Assembly (NCBI RefSeq): GCF_041950555.1
Contig: NZ_CP169531.1
Location: 2,970,560-2,994,559, forward strand
Direction: 5' to 3'
Length of the DNA: 24,000 bases
Origin: Zobellella sp. DQSA1
GTDB lineage: Bacteria; Pseudomonadota; Gammaproteobacteria; Enterobacterales; Aeromonadaceae
Made by a program: the position numbers and the translations under genes. Shown piece after piece: positions 8,252 through 14,393 of this stretch. The notes beneath the pieces are model-generated. The model did not search any database. It had not been told where the DNA came from and was given only the letters and a program-made list of their open reading frames with translations. Each line of letters begins with the position of its first letter. The stretch's first letter is position 1.

Positions 8252-8288
8252 AAACGCCCCGCGCAAGCAAGCCTGCGCGGGGCGTTTT
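8252..8288. terminator. Bidirectional terminator hairpin between convergent ychF and the CsgG-like gene
   Basis: AAACGCCCCGCGC (8252-8264) and GCGCGGGGCGTTT (8275-8287) are perfectly complementary over 13 bp, with a 10-nt loop. T-rich sequence follows on both strands. Confidence 0.7.
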
Positions 8289-8306: not shown

Positions 8307-9143
8307 TCAGTTGACCCTCAAAACCCCACCGGTACCCAGACCACCTTCAACATCCTGAGCCTTGTAGTTCTTCAGGGAGACGATCATCTTGTTCCAGGCG
8401 TCGTTGAACGCCGCCACCGTCGCCTTGCCTTCCGGTGTGCGAGAGAAACCACCCAGGCCACTGGCAACGTTGCCGGTCAGGCCGGCTATCGCCGCGCCGT
8501 AGTTGGTGGCGGTGGCACTGCCTTCGGAAATGGAAATCTGCACGGAGGAACGGATGTCGAACAGTGACAGGGTCACCACCGAGGCTTTCGACTGCATGGC
8601 ACCCGCCAGGCCCGCTACGGTGCTGTTGCCGAACAGGCCGCCGAGGGCCGCACCCAGGCCGCCAACCGAGTCGTTGTCGATGATTATCTTCGGCTCGAGG
8701 AAGTAATCCGCGGCGACGCGCTGCCCCTTGTGCTGGTTGGAGCCGGCCCGGTATTCACCGGAGTTACGCTGCTGATCGGTAATCCGGCTCAGGTTACTAT
8801 CGAGTTGCTGGTTGCCGATAGCGGTGATCACGAAGCAGTTGGACTGCTGCACGGCCAGGCGCAGCAGGGGCTCGATACTGGTAACCTGGGTGGCGCTGCC
8901 GAAGCGGCCATACCAGTCGGCGTTGCGGCCGTCATCCATGGCGATGGTGCCGAGGGAACGATCGCAGCGCTCCAATTCAGGGTTGGCTCCTGCACTGGTG
9001 CTGCCACCAGCCGAGCCGGACATGGCGGTGGACTGGTTTCCGGTGCTAAGCATTCCGCCACCGGCACAGGCCGAGAGGCTGGCGCCCAGCAAGCACAGGC
9101 CGAACAGCCTGCCGGCTTTGGATGGGGTGCGAGTGATGTTCAT
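8307..9143 (-). CDS. CsgG-like (CsgG/HfaB/LpoB-fold) outer-membrane lipoprotein
   Basis: 278 aa with a lipobox LSAC (Cys26) and Ala at +2, which predicts outer-membrane sorting. The mature part shows the pattern I associate with the CsgG family: a short strand motif (LGTIAMDD), a helix (IEPLLRLAVQQSNCFVITA), an ...ADYFLEPKII motif, and a Gly-rich loop followed by VVTLSLFDIRSSVQISISEGSA. The assignment is by recognised pattern, not by a search. Confidence 0.5.
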   Translation of the reverse strand: MNITRTPSKAGRLFGLCLLGASLSACAGGGMLSTGNQSTAMSGSAGGSTSAGANPELERCDRSLGTIAMDDGRNADWYGRFGSATQVTSIEPLLRLAVQQSNCFVITAIGNQQLDSNLSRITDQQRNSGEYRAGSNQHKGQRVAADYFLEPKIIIDNDSVGGLGAALGGLFGNSTVAGLAGAMQSKASVVTLSLFDIRSSVQISISEGSATATNYGAAIAGLTGNVASGLGGFSRTPEGKATVAAFNDAWNKMIVSLKNYKAQDVEGGLGTGGVLRVN

Positions 9144-9258
9144 GAGGTGTATTTCTCCCTGTCTATTTTTTGATATGTTGGACGGTCATTGCTTGGCCAG
9201 GCGGTCAGGGAGTATCCCGACCCTTCCTTGGCTGAGTTTTCTGATTGACAGTCCTGGG

Positions 9259-9867
9259 TCAGTAATACCAGTATCCCTGTCTCCAGTAGCCGAAGTATGA
9301 ATAACCCCGGTACCAGTAGCCGCGATAGTATTCACGCCAGTGCTGGCGCCAGCGATAATCCCCGGCCTCCCGTTGTTTCGCCTCGGCGGCTTCCGCCAAC
9401 AGGGAGGCTGACTCCTGATCTCCCTGGGCAGCCGCCATGGACAGCCATTTCTCCGCTTCTTGCGGATCGCTGCCCATTTCCTCGAGGCCGCTCAGGTAAT
9501 ATCCGCCCAGTGCTTGCTGGGCATGAAGCAGGCCGCTTTCGCCGGCCTTGCGCATCCATTGCAGCGCCTGGTAGCTGTTGCGTTGTATACCGTCACCACG
9601 GAAGTAACGCAGAGCGAGATCATAAGCCGCCCTGGGGTCACTGCTCGCCGCCTCTTCGAGTTTAAGTATTTGTTCGCTTTTGACGACCGGCGGCTCGTCC
9701 AGGTAGTCGGCGGTAGCAGAGGAAGAGGAACGTTCGGAACAGCCGGTGTCGTCGCAGAAACGCAGGGTTTCTTTAGAGGTGCTGGTAGCACAGGCGCTGA
9801 GGGTTACGGCGACGCCGACCAGAATGAGACATTTCTTCAGCGGGTTGCCCCTTGAATTGCTGACCAT
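9259..9867 (-). CDS. Sel1-repeat (SLR/TPR-like) lipoprotein with an aromatic/Arg/Gly-rich C-terminal tail
   Basis: The start is chosen at ATG 9867, which has AAGGAA about 9 nt upstream. The track start at 9894 is a GTG with no better support. The lipobox is LSAC (Cys26, +2 Ala). Sel1-type repeats are present (AAYDLALRYFRGDGIQRNSYQALQWMRKAGESG; HAQQALGGYYLSG...EAEKWLSMAAAQG). The tail reads DYRWRQHWREYYRGYWYRGYSYFGYWRQGYWYY. Confidence 0.75.
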   Translation of the reverse strand: MVSNSRGNPLKKCLILVGVAVTLSACATSTSKETLRFCDDTGCSERSSSSATADYLDEPPVVKSEQILKLEEAASSDPRAAYDLALRYFRGDGIQRNSYQALQWMRKAGESGLLHAQQALGGYYLSGLEEMGSDPQEAEKWLSMAAAQGDQESASLLAEAAEAKQREAGDYRWRQHWREYYRGYWYRGYSYFGYWRQGYWYY

Positions 9868-9950
9868 AGCGAAACATTCCTTGTAAATAGGCACAGGCTA
9901 AATAGAAAAATGCGGGACTCTTATTTTCAACCCAACCGTAAAAGCCAACA

Positions 9951-9970
9951 ACCTGTACTAAAGTACAGGT
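9951..9970 (-). promoter_or_regulatory. lux-box-type palindrome (candidate LuxR-family operator) upstream of the Sel1/CsgG-like operon
   Basis: ACCTGTACTAAAGTACAGGT has 9-bp perfectly complementary arms around a 2-nt centre. It matches the V. fischeri luxI lux box ACCTGTAGGATCGTACAGGT at 16/20 positions, with mismatches only at central positions 8, 9, 11 and 12. A minus-strand GAAAAT -10-like hexamer (9928..9923) lies 35 bp centre-to-centre downstream. Confidence 0.6.
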
Positions 9971-10619: not shown

Positions 10620-11327
10620 ATGTTAGCCAAGAGTGATCTGCTCTTGACGCTTGATCTTATTTCCAAGTGCCTGGAGATAAGAAGTCAAGAGAACCTCAAG
10701 GAACTAAAGGACACCCTAAGCAAAGAGCTGGGCATCAGTTCCATGGTTGCCGGTCGTGTATGTCGGTACACCAAAGTTGAAACCGGATATTTTTTTGGCA
10801 TAAGTGAAGAATGGAGTAGGTTATATATAGAAAACAATTATTCCATGGTGGATCCTGTATTTAATTTATCTATCAGATCCTCTGTCCCCTTCCTGTGGGC
10901 GACTGCTTACTCCCGCGCTGGCCATAACAGTAACGAGTTTATCCAACGCGCCAGGGATTTCTCTCTGATGGAAGGCATTTGCTATGCACCAAAGGATTAC
11001 TCAATGGTGGCCGATACCACAGTGGTATCGCTTGGAAATGGAAAAACGCCTTTAGATCGTATGCAAGTCGAGATTATCAAGCATCTCATCCCCCATATTG
11101 CTGAAACCCTGATGCGGCCTTCCCTGTGGAACAATCCAAGATTAACGCCAAAAGAGATAGAAGTTATCAAATGGTGTGCTCATGGCAAGTCTTACTGGGA
11201 GATTTCCCTGGTCATGTCCATTTCCGAGCGAACGGTAAAATTTCATATGAATAATATCTTCAAAAAGCTGGATGTCCTGAATAAGGCCCAGGCTGTAGCC
11301 AGATGCATGAGCTTGGGATACGTGTAG
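10620..11327 (+). CDS. LuxR-family transcriptional regulator with an autoinducer-binding domain and no adjacent luxI (LuxR solo)
   Basis: 235 aa. The C-terminus is a GerE/LuxR helix-turn-helix (HTH) domain (LTPKEIEVIKWCAHGKSYWEISLVMSISERTVKFHMNNIFKKLDV). The N-terminal domain carries W65, Y69, D78, P79, W93 and G119, and the first five have exactly the spacing of TraR W57/Y61/D70/P71/W85. AGGGGA lies 7 nt upstream of the ATG. Confidence 0.85.
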   Translation: MLAKSDLLLTLDLISKCLEIRSQENLKELKDTLSKELGISSMVAGRVCRYTKVETGYFFGISEEWSRLYIENNYSMVDPVFNLSIRSSVPFLWATAYSRAGHNSNEFIQRARDFSLMEGICYAPKDYSMVADTTVVSLGNGKTPLDRMQVEIIKHLIPHIAETLMRPSLWNNPRLTPKEIEVIKWCAHGKSYWEISLVMSISERTVKFHMNNIFKKLDVLNKAQAVARCMSLGYV

Positions 11328-13670: not shown

Positions 13671-13747
13671 GGCTATGTAGCTCAGTTGGTTAGAGCACAT
13701 CACTCATAATGATGGGGTCGCAGGTTCGAATCCCGCCATAGCCACCA
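13671..13747 (+). tRNA. tRNA-Met (CAU), elongator type
   Basis: GGCTATGTAGCTCAGTTGGTTAGAGCACATCACTCATAATGATGGGGTCGCAGGTTCGAATCCCGCCATAGCCACCA. The cloverleaf is readable, the anticodon loop is CTCATAA, and the CCA end is encoded. It is close to E. coli metT/metU. Confidence 0.95.
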
Positions 13748-13753
13748 CTCTGC

Positions 13754-13828
13754 TGGGGTATCGCCAAGCGGTAAGGCAGCGGGTTTTGATCCCGCCATTC
13801 CCAGGTTCGAATCCTGGTACCCCAGCCA
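13754..13828 (+). tRNA. tRNA-Gln (UUG)
   Basis: TGGGGTATCGCCAAGCGGTAAGGCAGCGGGTTTTGATCCCGCCATTCCCAGGTTCGAATCCTGGTACCCCAGCCA. The anticodon stem is GCGGG/CCCGC with loop TTTTGAT, and the CCA end is encoded. Confidence 0.95.
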
Positions 13829-13831
13829 TAT

Positions 13832-13906
13832 TATCTGTCAAGCTGGATTAACAGCGGGTTTTGCTCCCGGCCTCAGCGCCCAGGTTCGGAACTCGGTAAC
13901 CAGGCT
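13832..13906 (+). pseudogene. Decayed tRNA-Gln copy in the operon spacer
   Basis: It aligns by eye to the intact tRNA-Gln. CAGCGGGTTTTG (anticodon stem and loop) is identical and CCCAGGTTCG of the T-arm is retained. The acceptor stem, D-arm and T-stem complement are broken (..TTCGGAACTCGGTAACCAGGCTA). Confidence 0.5.
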
Positions 13907-13954
13907 ATTTTTTAAATGGCTGGCAATTGTGTTATAACTGCCAACCATCACTGT

Positions 13955-14029
13955 TGGGGTATCGCCAAGCGGTAAGGCAGCGGGTTTTGATCCCGCCATT
14001 CCCAGGTTCGAATCCTGGTACCCCAGCCA
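13955..14029 (+). tRNA. tRNA-Gln (UUG), identical to the copy at 13754
   Basis: 75/75 identical sequence, with the CCA end encoded. Confidence 0.95.
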
Positions 14030-14039
14030 TTTTTCATAA

Positions 14040-14107
14040 ATGGTTGAAGAAAAGCAGAGTTTGGCACCGGCATTTATGACCTGGTTCGTAGCTCGGCACT
14101 ACAGCCA
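14040..14107 (+). pseudogene. Second, more degraded tRNA-Gln-derived spacer
   Basis: AAGCAGAGTTTGGCACCGGCATT...CCTGGTTCGTAGCTCGGCACTACAGCCA parallels AGGCAGCGGGTTTTGATCCCGCCATT...CCAGGTTCGAATCCTGGTACCCCAGCCA. No cloverleaf can be drawn. Confidence 0.4.
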
Positions 14108-14141
14108 TTTAAACACCATTGAGGCGACTCAATGCTTATGT

Positions 14142-14218
14142 GGCTATGTAGCTCAGTTGGTTAGAGCACATCACTCATAATGATGGGGTCGCAGGTTCGA
14201 ATCCCGCCATAGCCACCA
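14142..14218 (+). tRNA. tRNA-Met (CAU), identical to the copy at 13671
   Basis: 77/77 identical sequence. Confidence 0.95.
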
Positions 14219-14225
14219 CTCTTTT

Positions 14226-14310
14226 GCGGGAGTGGCGAAATTGGTAGACGCACCAGATTTAGGTTCTGGCGCCGCAAGGTGTGCGAGTTCAAGTCTCGCC
14301 TCCCGCACCA
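14226..14310 (+). tRNA. leuW: tRNA-Leu (UAG), class II with a long variable arm
   Basis: GCGGGAGTGGCGAAATTGGTAGACGCACCAGATTTAGGTTCTGGCGCCGCAAGGTGTGCGAGTTCAAGTCTCGCCTCCCGCACCA. The anticodon loop is TTTAGGT. It matches my recollection of E. coli leuW. Confidence 0.95.
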
Positions 14311-14318
14311 TTAAAAAT

Positions 14319-14393
14319 TGGGGTATCGCCAAGCGGTAAGGCAGCGGGTTTTGATCCCGCCATTCCCAGGTTCGAATCCTGGTACCCCAGCCA
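14319..14393 (+). tRNA. tRNA-Gln (UUG), third identical copy
   Basis: 75/75 identical to 13754-13828. Confidence 0.95.

Follow-up and report, generated by a model that had tools for sequence, protein, structure and literature searches.

The stretch of DNA analysed here (the window, 24,000 nucleotides) comes from Zobellella sp. DQSA1, contig NZ_CP169531.1, positions 2,970,560 to 2,994,559. On its minus strand it carries a gene for a Sel1-repeat lipoprotein whose C-terminal end is an extremely aromatic tail, DYRWRQHWREYYRGYWYRGYSYFGYWRQGYWYY, encoded by the 33 codons at 9262-9360. This gene is followed by that of a divergent CsgG/HfaB-type lipoprotein, hereafter called the partner. Database comparisons showed that the tail is conserved position by position, selected and restricted to one protein family, and that its gene is paired with the partner gene. 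According to structure prediction, the tail is a folded, family-defining C-terminal module, and the pair probably represents an undescribed two-protein outer-membrane device. The features of the locus are given below, with residue numbers in the 211-residue open reading frame (ORF) and with the basis of each assignment in brackets.

9259..9894, minus strand: gene of the Sel1-repeat lipoprotein with aromatic tail (ORF list, Pfam Sel1, homologues, AlphaFold2)
9790..9801, minus strand: lipobox L32-S33-A34-C35, end of the signal peptide (read from the sequence)
9739..9762, minus strand: R-x-C-D-x-x-G-C motif with two Cys, residues 45-52 (alignment A1; predicted beta-hairpin)
9418..9675, minus strand: Sel1 repeat core, about three helix pairs, residues ~74-159 (Pfam, PDB sequence matches, Foldseek)
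9304..9360, minus strand: tail part 1, DYRWRQHWREYYRGYWYRG, residues 179-197, aromatic/arginine segment predicted to extend the last Sel1 helix (AlphaFold2 helix, conservation)
9289..9303, minus strand: tail part 2, YSYFG, residues 198-202, connecting loop (conservation; no regular secondary structure in the AlphaFold2 model)
9262..9288, minus strand: tail part 3, YWRQGYWYY, residues 203-211, predicted short beta-hairpin with a two-residue x-G turn (AlphaFold2, conservation)
9259-9261, minus strand: stop codon TGA (read from the sequence)
9144..9258, minus strand: intergenic spacer of 115 nt, with a GGGAG ribosome-binding site before the partner ATG (sequence)
8307..9143, minus strand: partner gene, 278-aa predicted lipoprotein with lipobox LSAC (gene adjacency, Pfam, Foldseek, transitive homology, composition)
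8258..8271, minus strand: terminator-like hairpin and T-run directly after the partner gene (consensus scan, pattern match only)

The Sel1 lipoprotein and its aromatic tail

Translation of the Sel1 gene may start at GTG 9894 (211 aa) or at ATG 9867 (202 aa), the start found in database entry P0001; residues 151-188, 194-196 and 199-201 of that entry correspond to ORF residues 160-197, 203-205 and 208-210. The product matches the Pfam Sel1 family (PF08238) over two stretches (E 1.1e-13; 51.6 bits against a cut-off of 30.7), and PDB Sel1 proteins match it by sequence with a best E-value of 5.5e-32. Its lipobox conforms to the pattern [LVI][ASTVI][GAS]C, which makes it a predicted lipoprotein. 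The R, C, D, G and C of the motif at residues 45-52 are invariant or nearly so in alignment A1; two strands are predicted there (residues 34-39 and 42-47 of P0001, with predicted local distance difference test values, pLDDT, of 83-85), and the two cysteines of this N-terminal hairpin are probably joined by a disulfide bond.

The tail contains 11 Y, 5 W, 1 F, 6 R and 4 G and ends in YY. Both its sequence and these counts had been given by an earlier sequence-only reading of the locus and match the end of the minus-strand ORF exactly. Aromatic residues account for 17 of the 33 tail positions versus 12 of the 178 in the rest of the same protein (binomial P ~5e-12). No tandem repeat was found in the DNA under the tail, and its sequence includes no hydrophobic stretch. 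Across the family, the Wimley-White interfacial energy of the tail averages -10.7 kcal/mol, with a net charge of about +4, while the octanol-scale energy is about +1.4. The octanol value argues against a transmembrane segment, and the physical properties as a whole fit a binder of membrane interfaces or protein surfaces.

Conservation and selection of the tail

A protein search at E<=1e-3 returned 699 homologues of the Sel1-tail protein, from sources including Burkholderia, Ralstonia, Thauera, Methylophilaceae, Thiosocius and Desulfobulbus, and among the best 120 a similar tail stands at the end of every full-length member. In an alignment of 119 homologues the tail is free of gaps and does not vary in length, which answers positively the question, raised by the sequence-only reading, of whether orthologues keep it. 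W194, Y198, Y200 and W204 are invariant (119/119) and W209 is present in 118 of the 119 sequences; W182 (106/119), R183, W186, R187 (107/119), an aromatic residue at 190, Y193 and Y195 are strongly preferred. A conserved G-Y-P-Y motif is formed by G197 (81/119) together with the loop, in which P199 (68/119) accompanies the invariant Y198 and Y200, and G207 of the hairpin turn is found in 65 members. The overall consensus is [YWF]-x-W-R-x-x-W-R-x-x-[FYW]-Y-x-Y-W-Y-x-G-Y-P-Y-x-x-x-W-R-x-x-x-W-Y-[YW], and the last residue is Y in 78 members, R in 29, H in 9, N in 1 and P in 1.

Mean pairwise identity is 49% in the tail; the Sel1 core reaches 75%, and the linker that follows the signal peptide 25%. 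Pooled over those pairs whose synonymous sites are not saturated, the ratio of nonsynonymous to synonymous substitution rates (dN/dS, Nei-Gojobori) amounts to 0.35 in the tail and 0.13 in the core. The tail is under purifying selection. Furthermore, the motif W-x3-Y-x-Y-x3-W-x4-W was read in frame up to the stop in all 81 gene copies retrieved from other genomes; what a frameshifted tail looks like is exemplified by the database homologue P0019, which carries alternative-frame junk at this place. The TGA stop codon is thus genuine, and a frameshift or wrong stop was rejected. The sequence-only reading had considered that orthologues might lack the tail or vary highly in it, or that the true stop might lie upstream because of a sequencing frameshift; neither turned out to be the case, and a real feature is therefore favoured. 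Neutral low-complexity drift could draw on the behaviour of the BLAST low-complexity filter, which masks the tail so that alignments end near residue 174, but zero indels, invariant positions, a dN/dS of 0.35 and the motif in 81/81 copies leave drift or a frameshift artefact with practically no probability.

A lipobox was recognised in at least 97 of the 119 homologues. In about 10 members it is replaced by a signal of the signal-peptidase-I type (A-x-A type), and the tail is kept in all of them; since none of the homologues lost the tail, it appears more indispensable than the lipid anchor. Members without lipobox include P0054, P0059, P0065, P0079, P0081, P0085, P0112, P0115 and P0117, most of which have a variant tail ending W-x-W-G/S-P-x-G-W-Y-x-R.

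Predicted fold of the tail

AlphaFold2, run on an alignment of 55 sequences, produced a model of the Sel1 protein with a mean pLDDT of 88.5, and of ~87-96 over the last 30 residues. From the N-terminus onwards, the model shows the beta-hairpin at the Cys motif and three Sel1 helix pairs, the last helix of which continues unbroken into the tail (residues 160-197, pLDDT ~89-97); a loop then leads to the hairpin strands at residues 203-205 and 208-210. Taking the standard register with a turn at 206-207, W204 would stand opposite W209 across the hairpin in a tryptophan-zipper-like arrangement. Projection of the helical part on a wheel groups W182, W186, Y189/Y190 and Y193 on one face, with R183, R187 and R191 arranged as an i/i+4 stripe.

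The top 20 Foldseek matches of this model in the PDB are Sel1 structures, aligned over about 95 core residues with a root-mean-square deviation of ~2 Å. The tail lies outside every one of these Sel1 matches, and nothing in this search matches it. The sequence-only reading had described quasi-periodic units in the tail as foreign to Sel1 repeats. That the tail lies outside the ordinary Sel1 fold agrees with the limited extent of the PDB matches, but the supposed units are not conserved as repeats, the family being conserved in a position-specific manner.

The tail compared with known C-terminal signals and repeats

A hidden Markov model built on the tail alone (36 positions) was searched against 1.84 billion representative proteins at E<=1e-3. 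This search for the motif by itself, which the sequence-only reading had suggested, retrieved nine matches, all of which are members or fragments of the same Sel1 family; a profile of 36 positions has limited power, and very divergent versions of the tail could escape it. The result points to a dedicated part of one protein and not to a portable sorting tag. Portable C-terminal sorting domains (PEP-CTERM, GlyGly-CTERM, LPXTG or the C-terminal domain of type IX secretion substrates) were consequently rejected, given the restriction to one family, the lack of any NCBIfam sorting-signal match and the missing hydrophobic stretch. A curlin-type amyloid subunit is likewise disfavoured, with no match to Pfam Curlin_rpt at E<=0.1, no tandem DNA repeat and no variation in length among the 119 sequences. 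The choline- or cell-wall-binding family CW_binding_1 of Pfam gave no match at E<=0.1, and the Sel1 protein matched no Pfam cell-wall-binding or carbohydrate-binding family.

The partner, a divergent CsgG/HfaB-type lipoprotein

A consensus scan reported no terminator-like site between the Sel1 gene and its partner; the hairpin and T-run found directly after the partner gene (8258..8271) likely mark the end of a two-gene unit. In Pfam, the partner has no significant family and no CsgG match, and its score for LpoB (19.2 bits) is below the cut-off of 22.3. Forty close homologues behaved similarly, with weak LpoB matches in 40/40 and weak CsgG matches in 9/40. No sequence relative was found in the PDB, whether a single sequence or a profile was used. 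In Foldseek searches with the predicted structure, the top 13 matches were almost all CsgG chains of entry 4uv2 (E 1e-4 to 2e-3), with TM-scores of 0.24-0.35 that are low because the partner model is poor; further matches to FlgT, PelC, GNA1162 and LptE belong to the same lipoprotein fold class.

Searches of plasmid records with tblastn revealed relatives of the partner at 31-41% identity that the Prokaryotic Genome Annotation Pipeline (PGAP) names 'CsgG/HfaB family protein'. Two of its relatives, 38% (E 2e-34) and 31% (E 2e-8) identical, reach 24.3 and 49.3 bits, respectively, with Pfam CsgG (PF03783), for which the cut-off is 20.8. On account of this transitive homology, the partner was filed as a divergent member of the CsgG/HfaB family. 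The CsgG-like character that the sequence-only reading had attributed to the downstream gene was thus borne out, at a distance, by weak Pfam scores, Foldseek matches and relatives that pass the CsgG cut-off.

Segments 157-184 and 214-236 of the partner, located at the positions of the TM1 and TM2 transmembrane hairpins of CsgG, are rich in glycine (30-34%) and poor in aromatic residues (3 of 51 versus 8 of 56 in Escherichia coli CsgG). Positions 70-90 contain a cluster of residues whose invariance is limited to the Sel1-linked clade of partners. Besides the lipobox cysteine, C60 and C103 are nearly invariant. The C-terminus of the partner (residues 260-278; 8307-8363, minus strand) is strongly conserved and Gly-rich, with the pattern G-G-L-G-x-G-G-x-L-x-V-[ND]. 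It is kept in three of four distant CsgG/HfaB relatives that have no Sel1 gene, the Sphingomonas one (L087) being without it, and no similar terminus exists in E. coli CsgG.

Coupling of the two genes and distribution of the pair

A scan of one genome per species identified 358 loci with a relative of the Sel1-tail protein, among others in the Burkholderia cepacia complex, Ralstonia, Achromobacter, Thauera, Nitrosococcus, Methylobacillus and Desulfobulbus. The partner itself is represented in the databases by more than 2,000 clusters. Eighty loci were kept for the analysis of neighbours. When seeded on the Sel1 gene, the partner adjoins it in 75/80 loci; four of the five exceptions end at a contig edge, and the remaining one (L053) has a masked gap directly after the Sel1 gene. 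With the partner as seed, the reverse test in metagenomes recovered the Sel1 gene in 73/80 loci, and six of the seven exceptions had too little upstream sequence. In PLSDB, 12 records contain a partner that is 68-71% identical, with the Sel1-tail gene adjacent in 12/12; in another 12 records, whose partner homologues are at most 42% identical, it occurs in 0/12. As the sequence-only reading had proposed to check, orthologues located next to CsgG-like genes do keep their tails, the partner being adjacent in these proportions and the tail motif present in 81/81 copies.

Four arrangements of the pair were observed. In the usual case both genes share a strand, with the Sel1 gene first; the two can also be divergent (e.g., L015, L052, L076, L080 and Nitrosococcus), placed with the partner first on the same strand (L058) or convergent (one metagenome locus). 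Across the loci examined, no third conserved gene was found near the pair, and the neighbourhood comparison detected no conserved curlin, polysaccharide or flagellar genes. Other common neighbours reflect lineage-specific synteny, as with a sensor kinase and response regulator in Burkholderia. A full-text literature search returned nothing describing the pair or the tail motif.

Several individual contexts can be mentioned. In Achromobacter aegrifaciens (L083, 1-3934), the genes for a fimbrial usher (chaperone-usher) and a fimbrial subunit immediately precede the pair on the same strand; this is the only context hinting at a role in a surface structure, and it is not conserved elsewhere. Distant CsgG/HfaB relatives without a Sel1 gene were found on plasmids of Burkholderia contaminans, Caballeronia, Variovorax and Sphingomonas (L084-L087), in plasmid-backbone surroundings with a ParB-like protein (recognised by eye), an N-6 DNA methylase, a RES-Xre toxin-antitoxin pair, Ku and ParA. 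Several genomes of the Burkholderia cepacia complex possess two Sel1-tail copies on different contigs or replicons (L020/L025, L036/L040, L041/L066, L039/L072 and L059/L064). These duplicates are recent: partners are 97-100% identical in the four comparable pairs, and tails are identical or differ by one residue.

A possible docking role for the tail at the outer membrane

We favour a reading in which the tail serves to dock or anchor the Sel1 subunit at the outer membrane, either on the CsgG-like partner or next to it, and assign it a probability of roughly 0.4. The Sel1-tail protein and the divergent CsgG/HfaB-type lipoprotein would be the two halves of an obligate outer-membrane module encoded by two genes. 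Their lipoboxes suggest that both proteins are located at the inner (periplasmic) face of the outer membrane, where the partner would assemble into a CsgG-like oligomeric ring. The tail, with its Trp/Tyr-Arg helix prolonging the last Sel1 helix, its G-Y-P-Y loop and its putative terminal tryptophan-zipper-like hairpin, would fix the C-terminal end of the Sel1 subunit on this ring or immediately beside it. In such a scheme, the Sel1 protein would be an accessory subunit whose role, though not its sequence, recalls CsgE or CsgF at the curli pore. The sequence-only reading had counted a recognition tag for the CsgG-like protein among the possible roles of the tail. The genetic side of this proposal is strongly supported, the pair occurring in nearly every locus with enough flanking sequence; the contact through the tail itself is putative.

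A number of observations weigh against this docking role. The helical hydrophobic moment of the tail is only about 1 standard deviation above that of shuffled sequences, and a high pLDDT may be over-confident for a free helix. The partner model is poor (pLDDT 50.8), and the ring or pore nature of this protein is deduced from transitive homology and from analogy with CsgG. When the partner was aligned directly with E. coli CsgG by hhalign, 112 columns were collinear at a non-significant probability of 1-3%; this alignment spans the lipobox, the first strand, the first helix and the start of the first membrane hairpin. The part touching the partner or the membrane might also be the Sel1 groove and not the tail. 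Covariation between the two proteins (118 unique pairs, effective number of sequences, N_eff, ~29) showed that tail columns exceed entropy-matched columns in corrected mutual information (p 4e-8). The same excess was obtained against the signal peptide of the partner (p 0.008), and it was therefore attributed to shared phylogeny, not to contact. Finally, one metagenome locus (L159), complete on both flanks, has a partner gene of 63% identity and no Sel1-tail gene within 1.5 kb. On this contig of low G+C content, the partner is preceded by a 319-aa protein that looks CsgG/LpoB-like by eye (the two genes lie at 408-1367 and 1462-2295).

A bolder possibility, which we regard as rather improbable, is that the pair forms a minimal two-component outer-membrane channel in which the tails of the Sel1 protein supply, in trans, an aromatic layer to the Gly-rich barrel of the CsgG-type protein. 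Multiple tails might plug or line the lumen as a second constriction; alternatively, they might constitute the missing aromatic girdle, with Trp and Tyr packing on glycine surfaces. In the non-significant hhalign alignment, the partner stretch 70-90, where the residues specific to the Sel1-linked clade cluster, stands opposite the CsgG constriction loop.

Among the explanations that differ from docking on the partner, membrane anchoring independent of it is also rather unlikely, at about the level of the channel. The tail would lie at the interface of the outer membrane's inner leaflet, so that the protein is fixed at both ends or, in non-lipidated members, by its tail only. Its favourable interfacial partitioning energy and positive charge, found family-wide, the helix predicted by AlphaFold2 and the retention of the tail in the ~10 members without lipobox cysteine are all consistent with such an anchor. 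However, simple interfacial anchors usually tolerate change, and this leaves the invariant Y-x-Y and W...W positions and the fixed length unexplained, as does the strict coupling to one partner clade; the amphipathic moment is also weak for this purpose. Slightly less likely again is an intramolecular element or ligand site, where the tail would fold back, possibly on the N-terminal Cys hairpin, and cap the Sel1 superhelix, or bind a glycan (peptidoglycan, lipopolysaccharide core or exopolysaccharide) by CH-pi stacking and arginine contacts. The N-terminal and C-terminal hairpins are both confidently predicted in the monomer, the aromatic residues are invariant as in carbohydrate- or choline-binding hairpins, and lipoproteins with tetratricopeptide or Sel1 repeats accompany polysaccharide exporters, AlgK and PelB-PelC being among the structure matches. 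Nevertheless, the fold-back is hypothetical, and a ligand site is poorly reconciled with the absence of conserved polysaccharide synthesis genes near the pair and of Pfam cell-wall- or carbohydrate-binding matches in the Sel1 protein.

The Sel1 protein might also be an export substrate or surface adhesive whose C-terminus passes through the CsgG-like pore and is shown on the cell surface as a cation-pi adhesive or a self-associating, amyloid-like patch, much as curli and holdfast-anchor proteins depend on CsgG/HfaB. Known members of the CsgG/HfaB family do have amyloid or anchor proteins as their cargo, the Y/W/R/G composition is reminiscent of mussel adhesive proteins, and a cation-pi or adhesive patch, proposed by the sequence-only reading, is physically plausible for a segment so aromatic and with a net charge of about +4. 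Such a substrate is nonetheless improbable, considering the fixed length, the lack of repeat units and of DNA repeats, and the confident prediction of a helix and hairpin in place of a disordered or beta-rich repeat; moreover, each module has one such protein, with no separate nucleator gene and no curlin-repeat match. For the same reasons (fixed length, no repeat units or expansion, predicted helix and hairpin), the amyloid or steric-zipper role put forward by the sequence-only reading is disfavoured. Its suggestion of a beta-signal has lost most of its ground as well. A signal for the general envelope machinery, be it a beta-signal for the BAM (beta-barrel assembly machinery) complex, an outer-membrane-protein-like C-terminus that activates DegS or DegP, or a tag for tail-specific protease, would profit from the dominance of aromatic residues at the last positions and from the 78 of 119 members that end in Tyr. 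We consider it very unlikely, since 29 members end in Arg, 9 in His, 1 in Asn and 1 in Pro (40/119 in total), the protein is a helical-repeat lipoprotein without a barrel, all-helical apart from two short hairpins, and conservation extends over 33 residues, far beyond the need of such signals.

Comparison with known outer-membrane systems

CsgG/HfaB-family lipoproteins are known mainly as exporters of curli and holdfast components, and CsgG is also used as a sequencing nanopore. In the curli system of E. coli, as here, a CsgG/HfaB-family lipoprotein is encoded beside small dedicated accessory proteins (CsgE and CsgF). CsgF binds inside the CsgG barrel through a short terminal peptide, which is the role proposed for the tail. 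In contrast to curli, the accessory protein of the present pair is a (predicted) lipidated Sel1-repeat protein, the proposed peptide is C-terminal and aromatic, curlin genes are not found nearby, and the partner is too divergent for a direct Pfam CsgG match. The Sel1-tail protein has no Pfam match to CsgE or CsgF, and hhalign gave a probability of 0.2% for alignment A1 against E. coli CsgF.

The closest precedent for an adhesive substrate is the Caulobacter system of HfaB with HfaA and HfaD, in which a CsgG/HfaB-family lipoprotein is needed for proteins that self-associate at the cell surface. Unlike this system, the pair has no HfaA/HfaD-like genes (sequence relation to HfaA and HfaD was not compared), and its tail is fixed and folded-looking, not amyloid-like. 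AlgK-AlgE, PelB-PelC and Vibrio MotX-FlgT (flagellar LPHT ring) offer another parallel, a helical-repeat protein standing beside a ring-forming lipoprotein with the fold of the CsgG periplasmic domain. Both proteins of the window match chains of PDB entry 8z5n (MotX-like and FlgT-like) as well as AlgK/PelC entries. These matches are generic, however, with TM-scores of 0.25-0.44 and no linked polysaccharide or flagellar genes, and the known proteins have no comparable aromatic tail.

Shorter elements resemble the tail in part. DD-carboxypeptidases (the penicillin-binding proteins PBP5/6) are anchored by a C-terminal amphipathic helix, and this helix and Trp/Arg peptides of the indolicidin/tritrpticin type presumably share features with the tail: composition, predicted interfacial partitioning and, for PBP5/6, a C-terminal position on a periplasmic protein. 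These elements are short and tolerant of substitutions, whereas the tail has five invariant or near-invariant aromatic residues and an invariant length. Designed tryptophan zippers and CW_binding_1 repeats resemble the predicted tail hairpin in their x-G turn, two opposite Trp residues and W-Y-Y ending; the tail differs from them by having a single hairpin and no array, a W-W spacing of 5, not 7, and no Pfam CW_binding_1 match.

The pair can be seen as an outer-membrane module of the CsgG/HfaB type in which both the putative Sel1 accessory subunit and the aromatic C-terminal motif are new to the literature searched. The Sel1 lipoprotein, of which the aromatic tail is the most distinctive feature, accompanies one-to-one a large and uncharacterised branch of the CsgG/HfaB family, and the five invariant or near-invariant aromatic residues within 33 positions offer a precise experimental handle on pore function and on the engagement of accessory subunits. 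Should the tail bind inside or around the barrel, it would be relevant to the engineering of CsgG-type nanopores and to aromatic-arginine recognition of membranes or glycine-rich beta-sheets. An aromatic layer supplied in trans, if true, would represent a principle of gating or assembly not described for CsgG-family pores.

Other features of the window

A terminator-like hairpin with a T-run (9951-9970, minus strand; pattern match only) is located about 60 nt upstream of the Sel1 start, in the presumed leader or promoter region. A LuxR-family 'solo' regulator with an autoinducer-binding domain and a GerE helix-turn-helix is encoded divergently at 10620-11327 (plus strand), some 730 nt upstream of the Sel1 gene, with no LuxI gene noticed beside it. 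Its G+C content is 44-47% versus ~60-65% in the surrounding DNA, suggesting horizontal acquisition. Further along, at 13671-14393 (plus strand), lies a tight array of six tRNA genes, with some units duplicated: Met(CAT), Gln(TTG), Gln(TTG), Met(CAT), Leu(TAG) and Gln(TTG).

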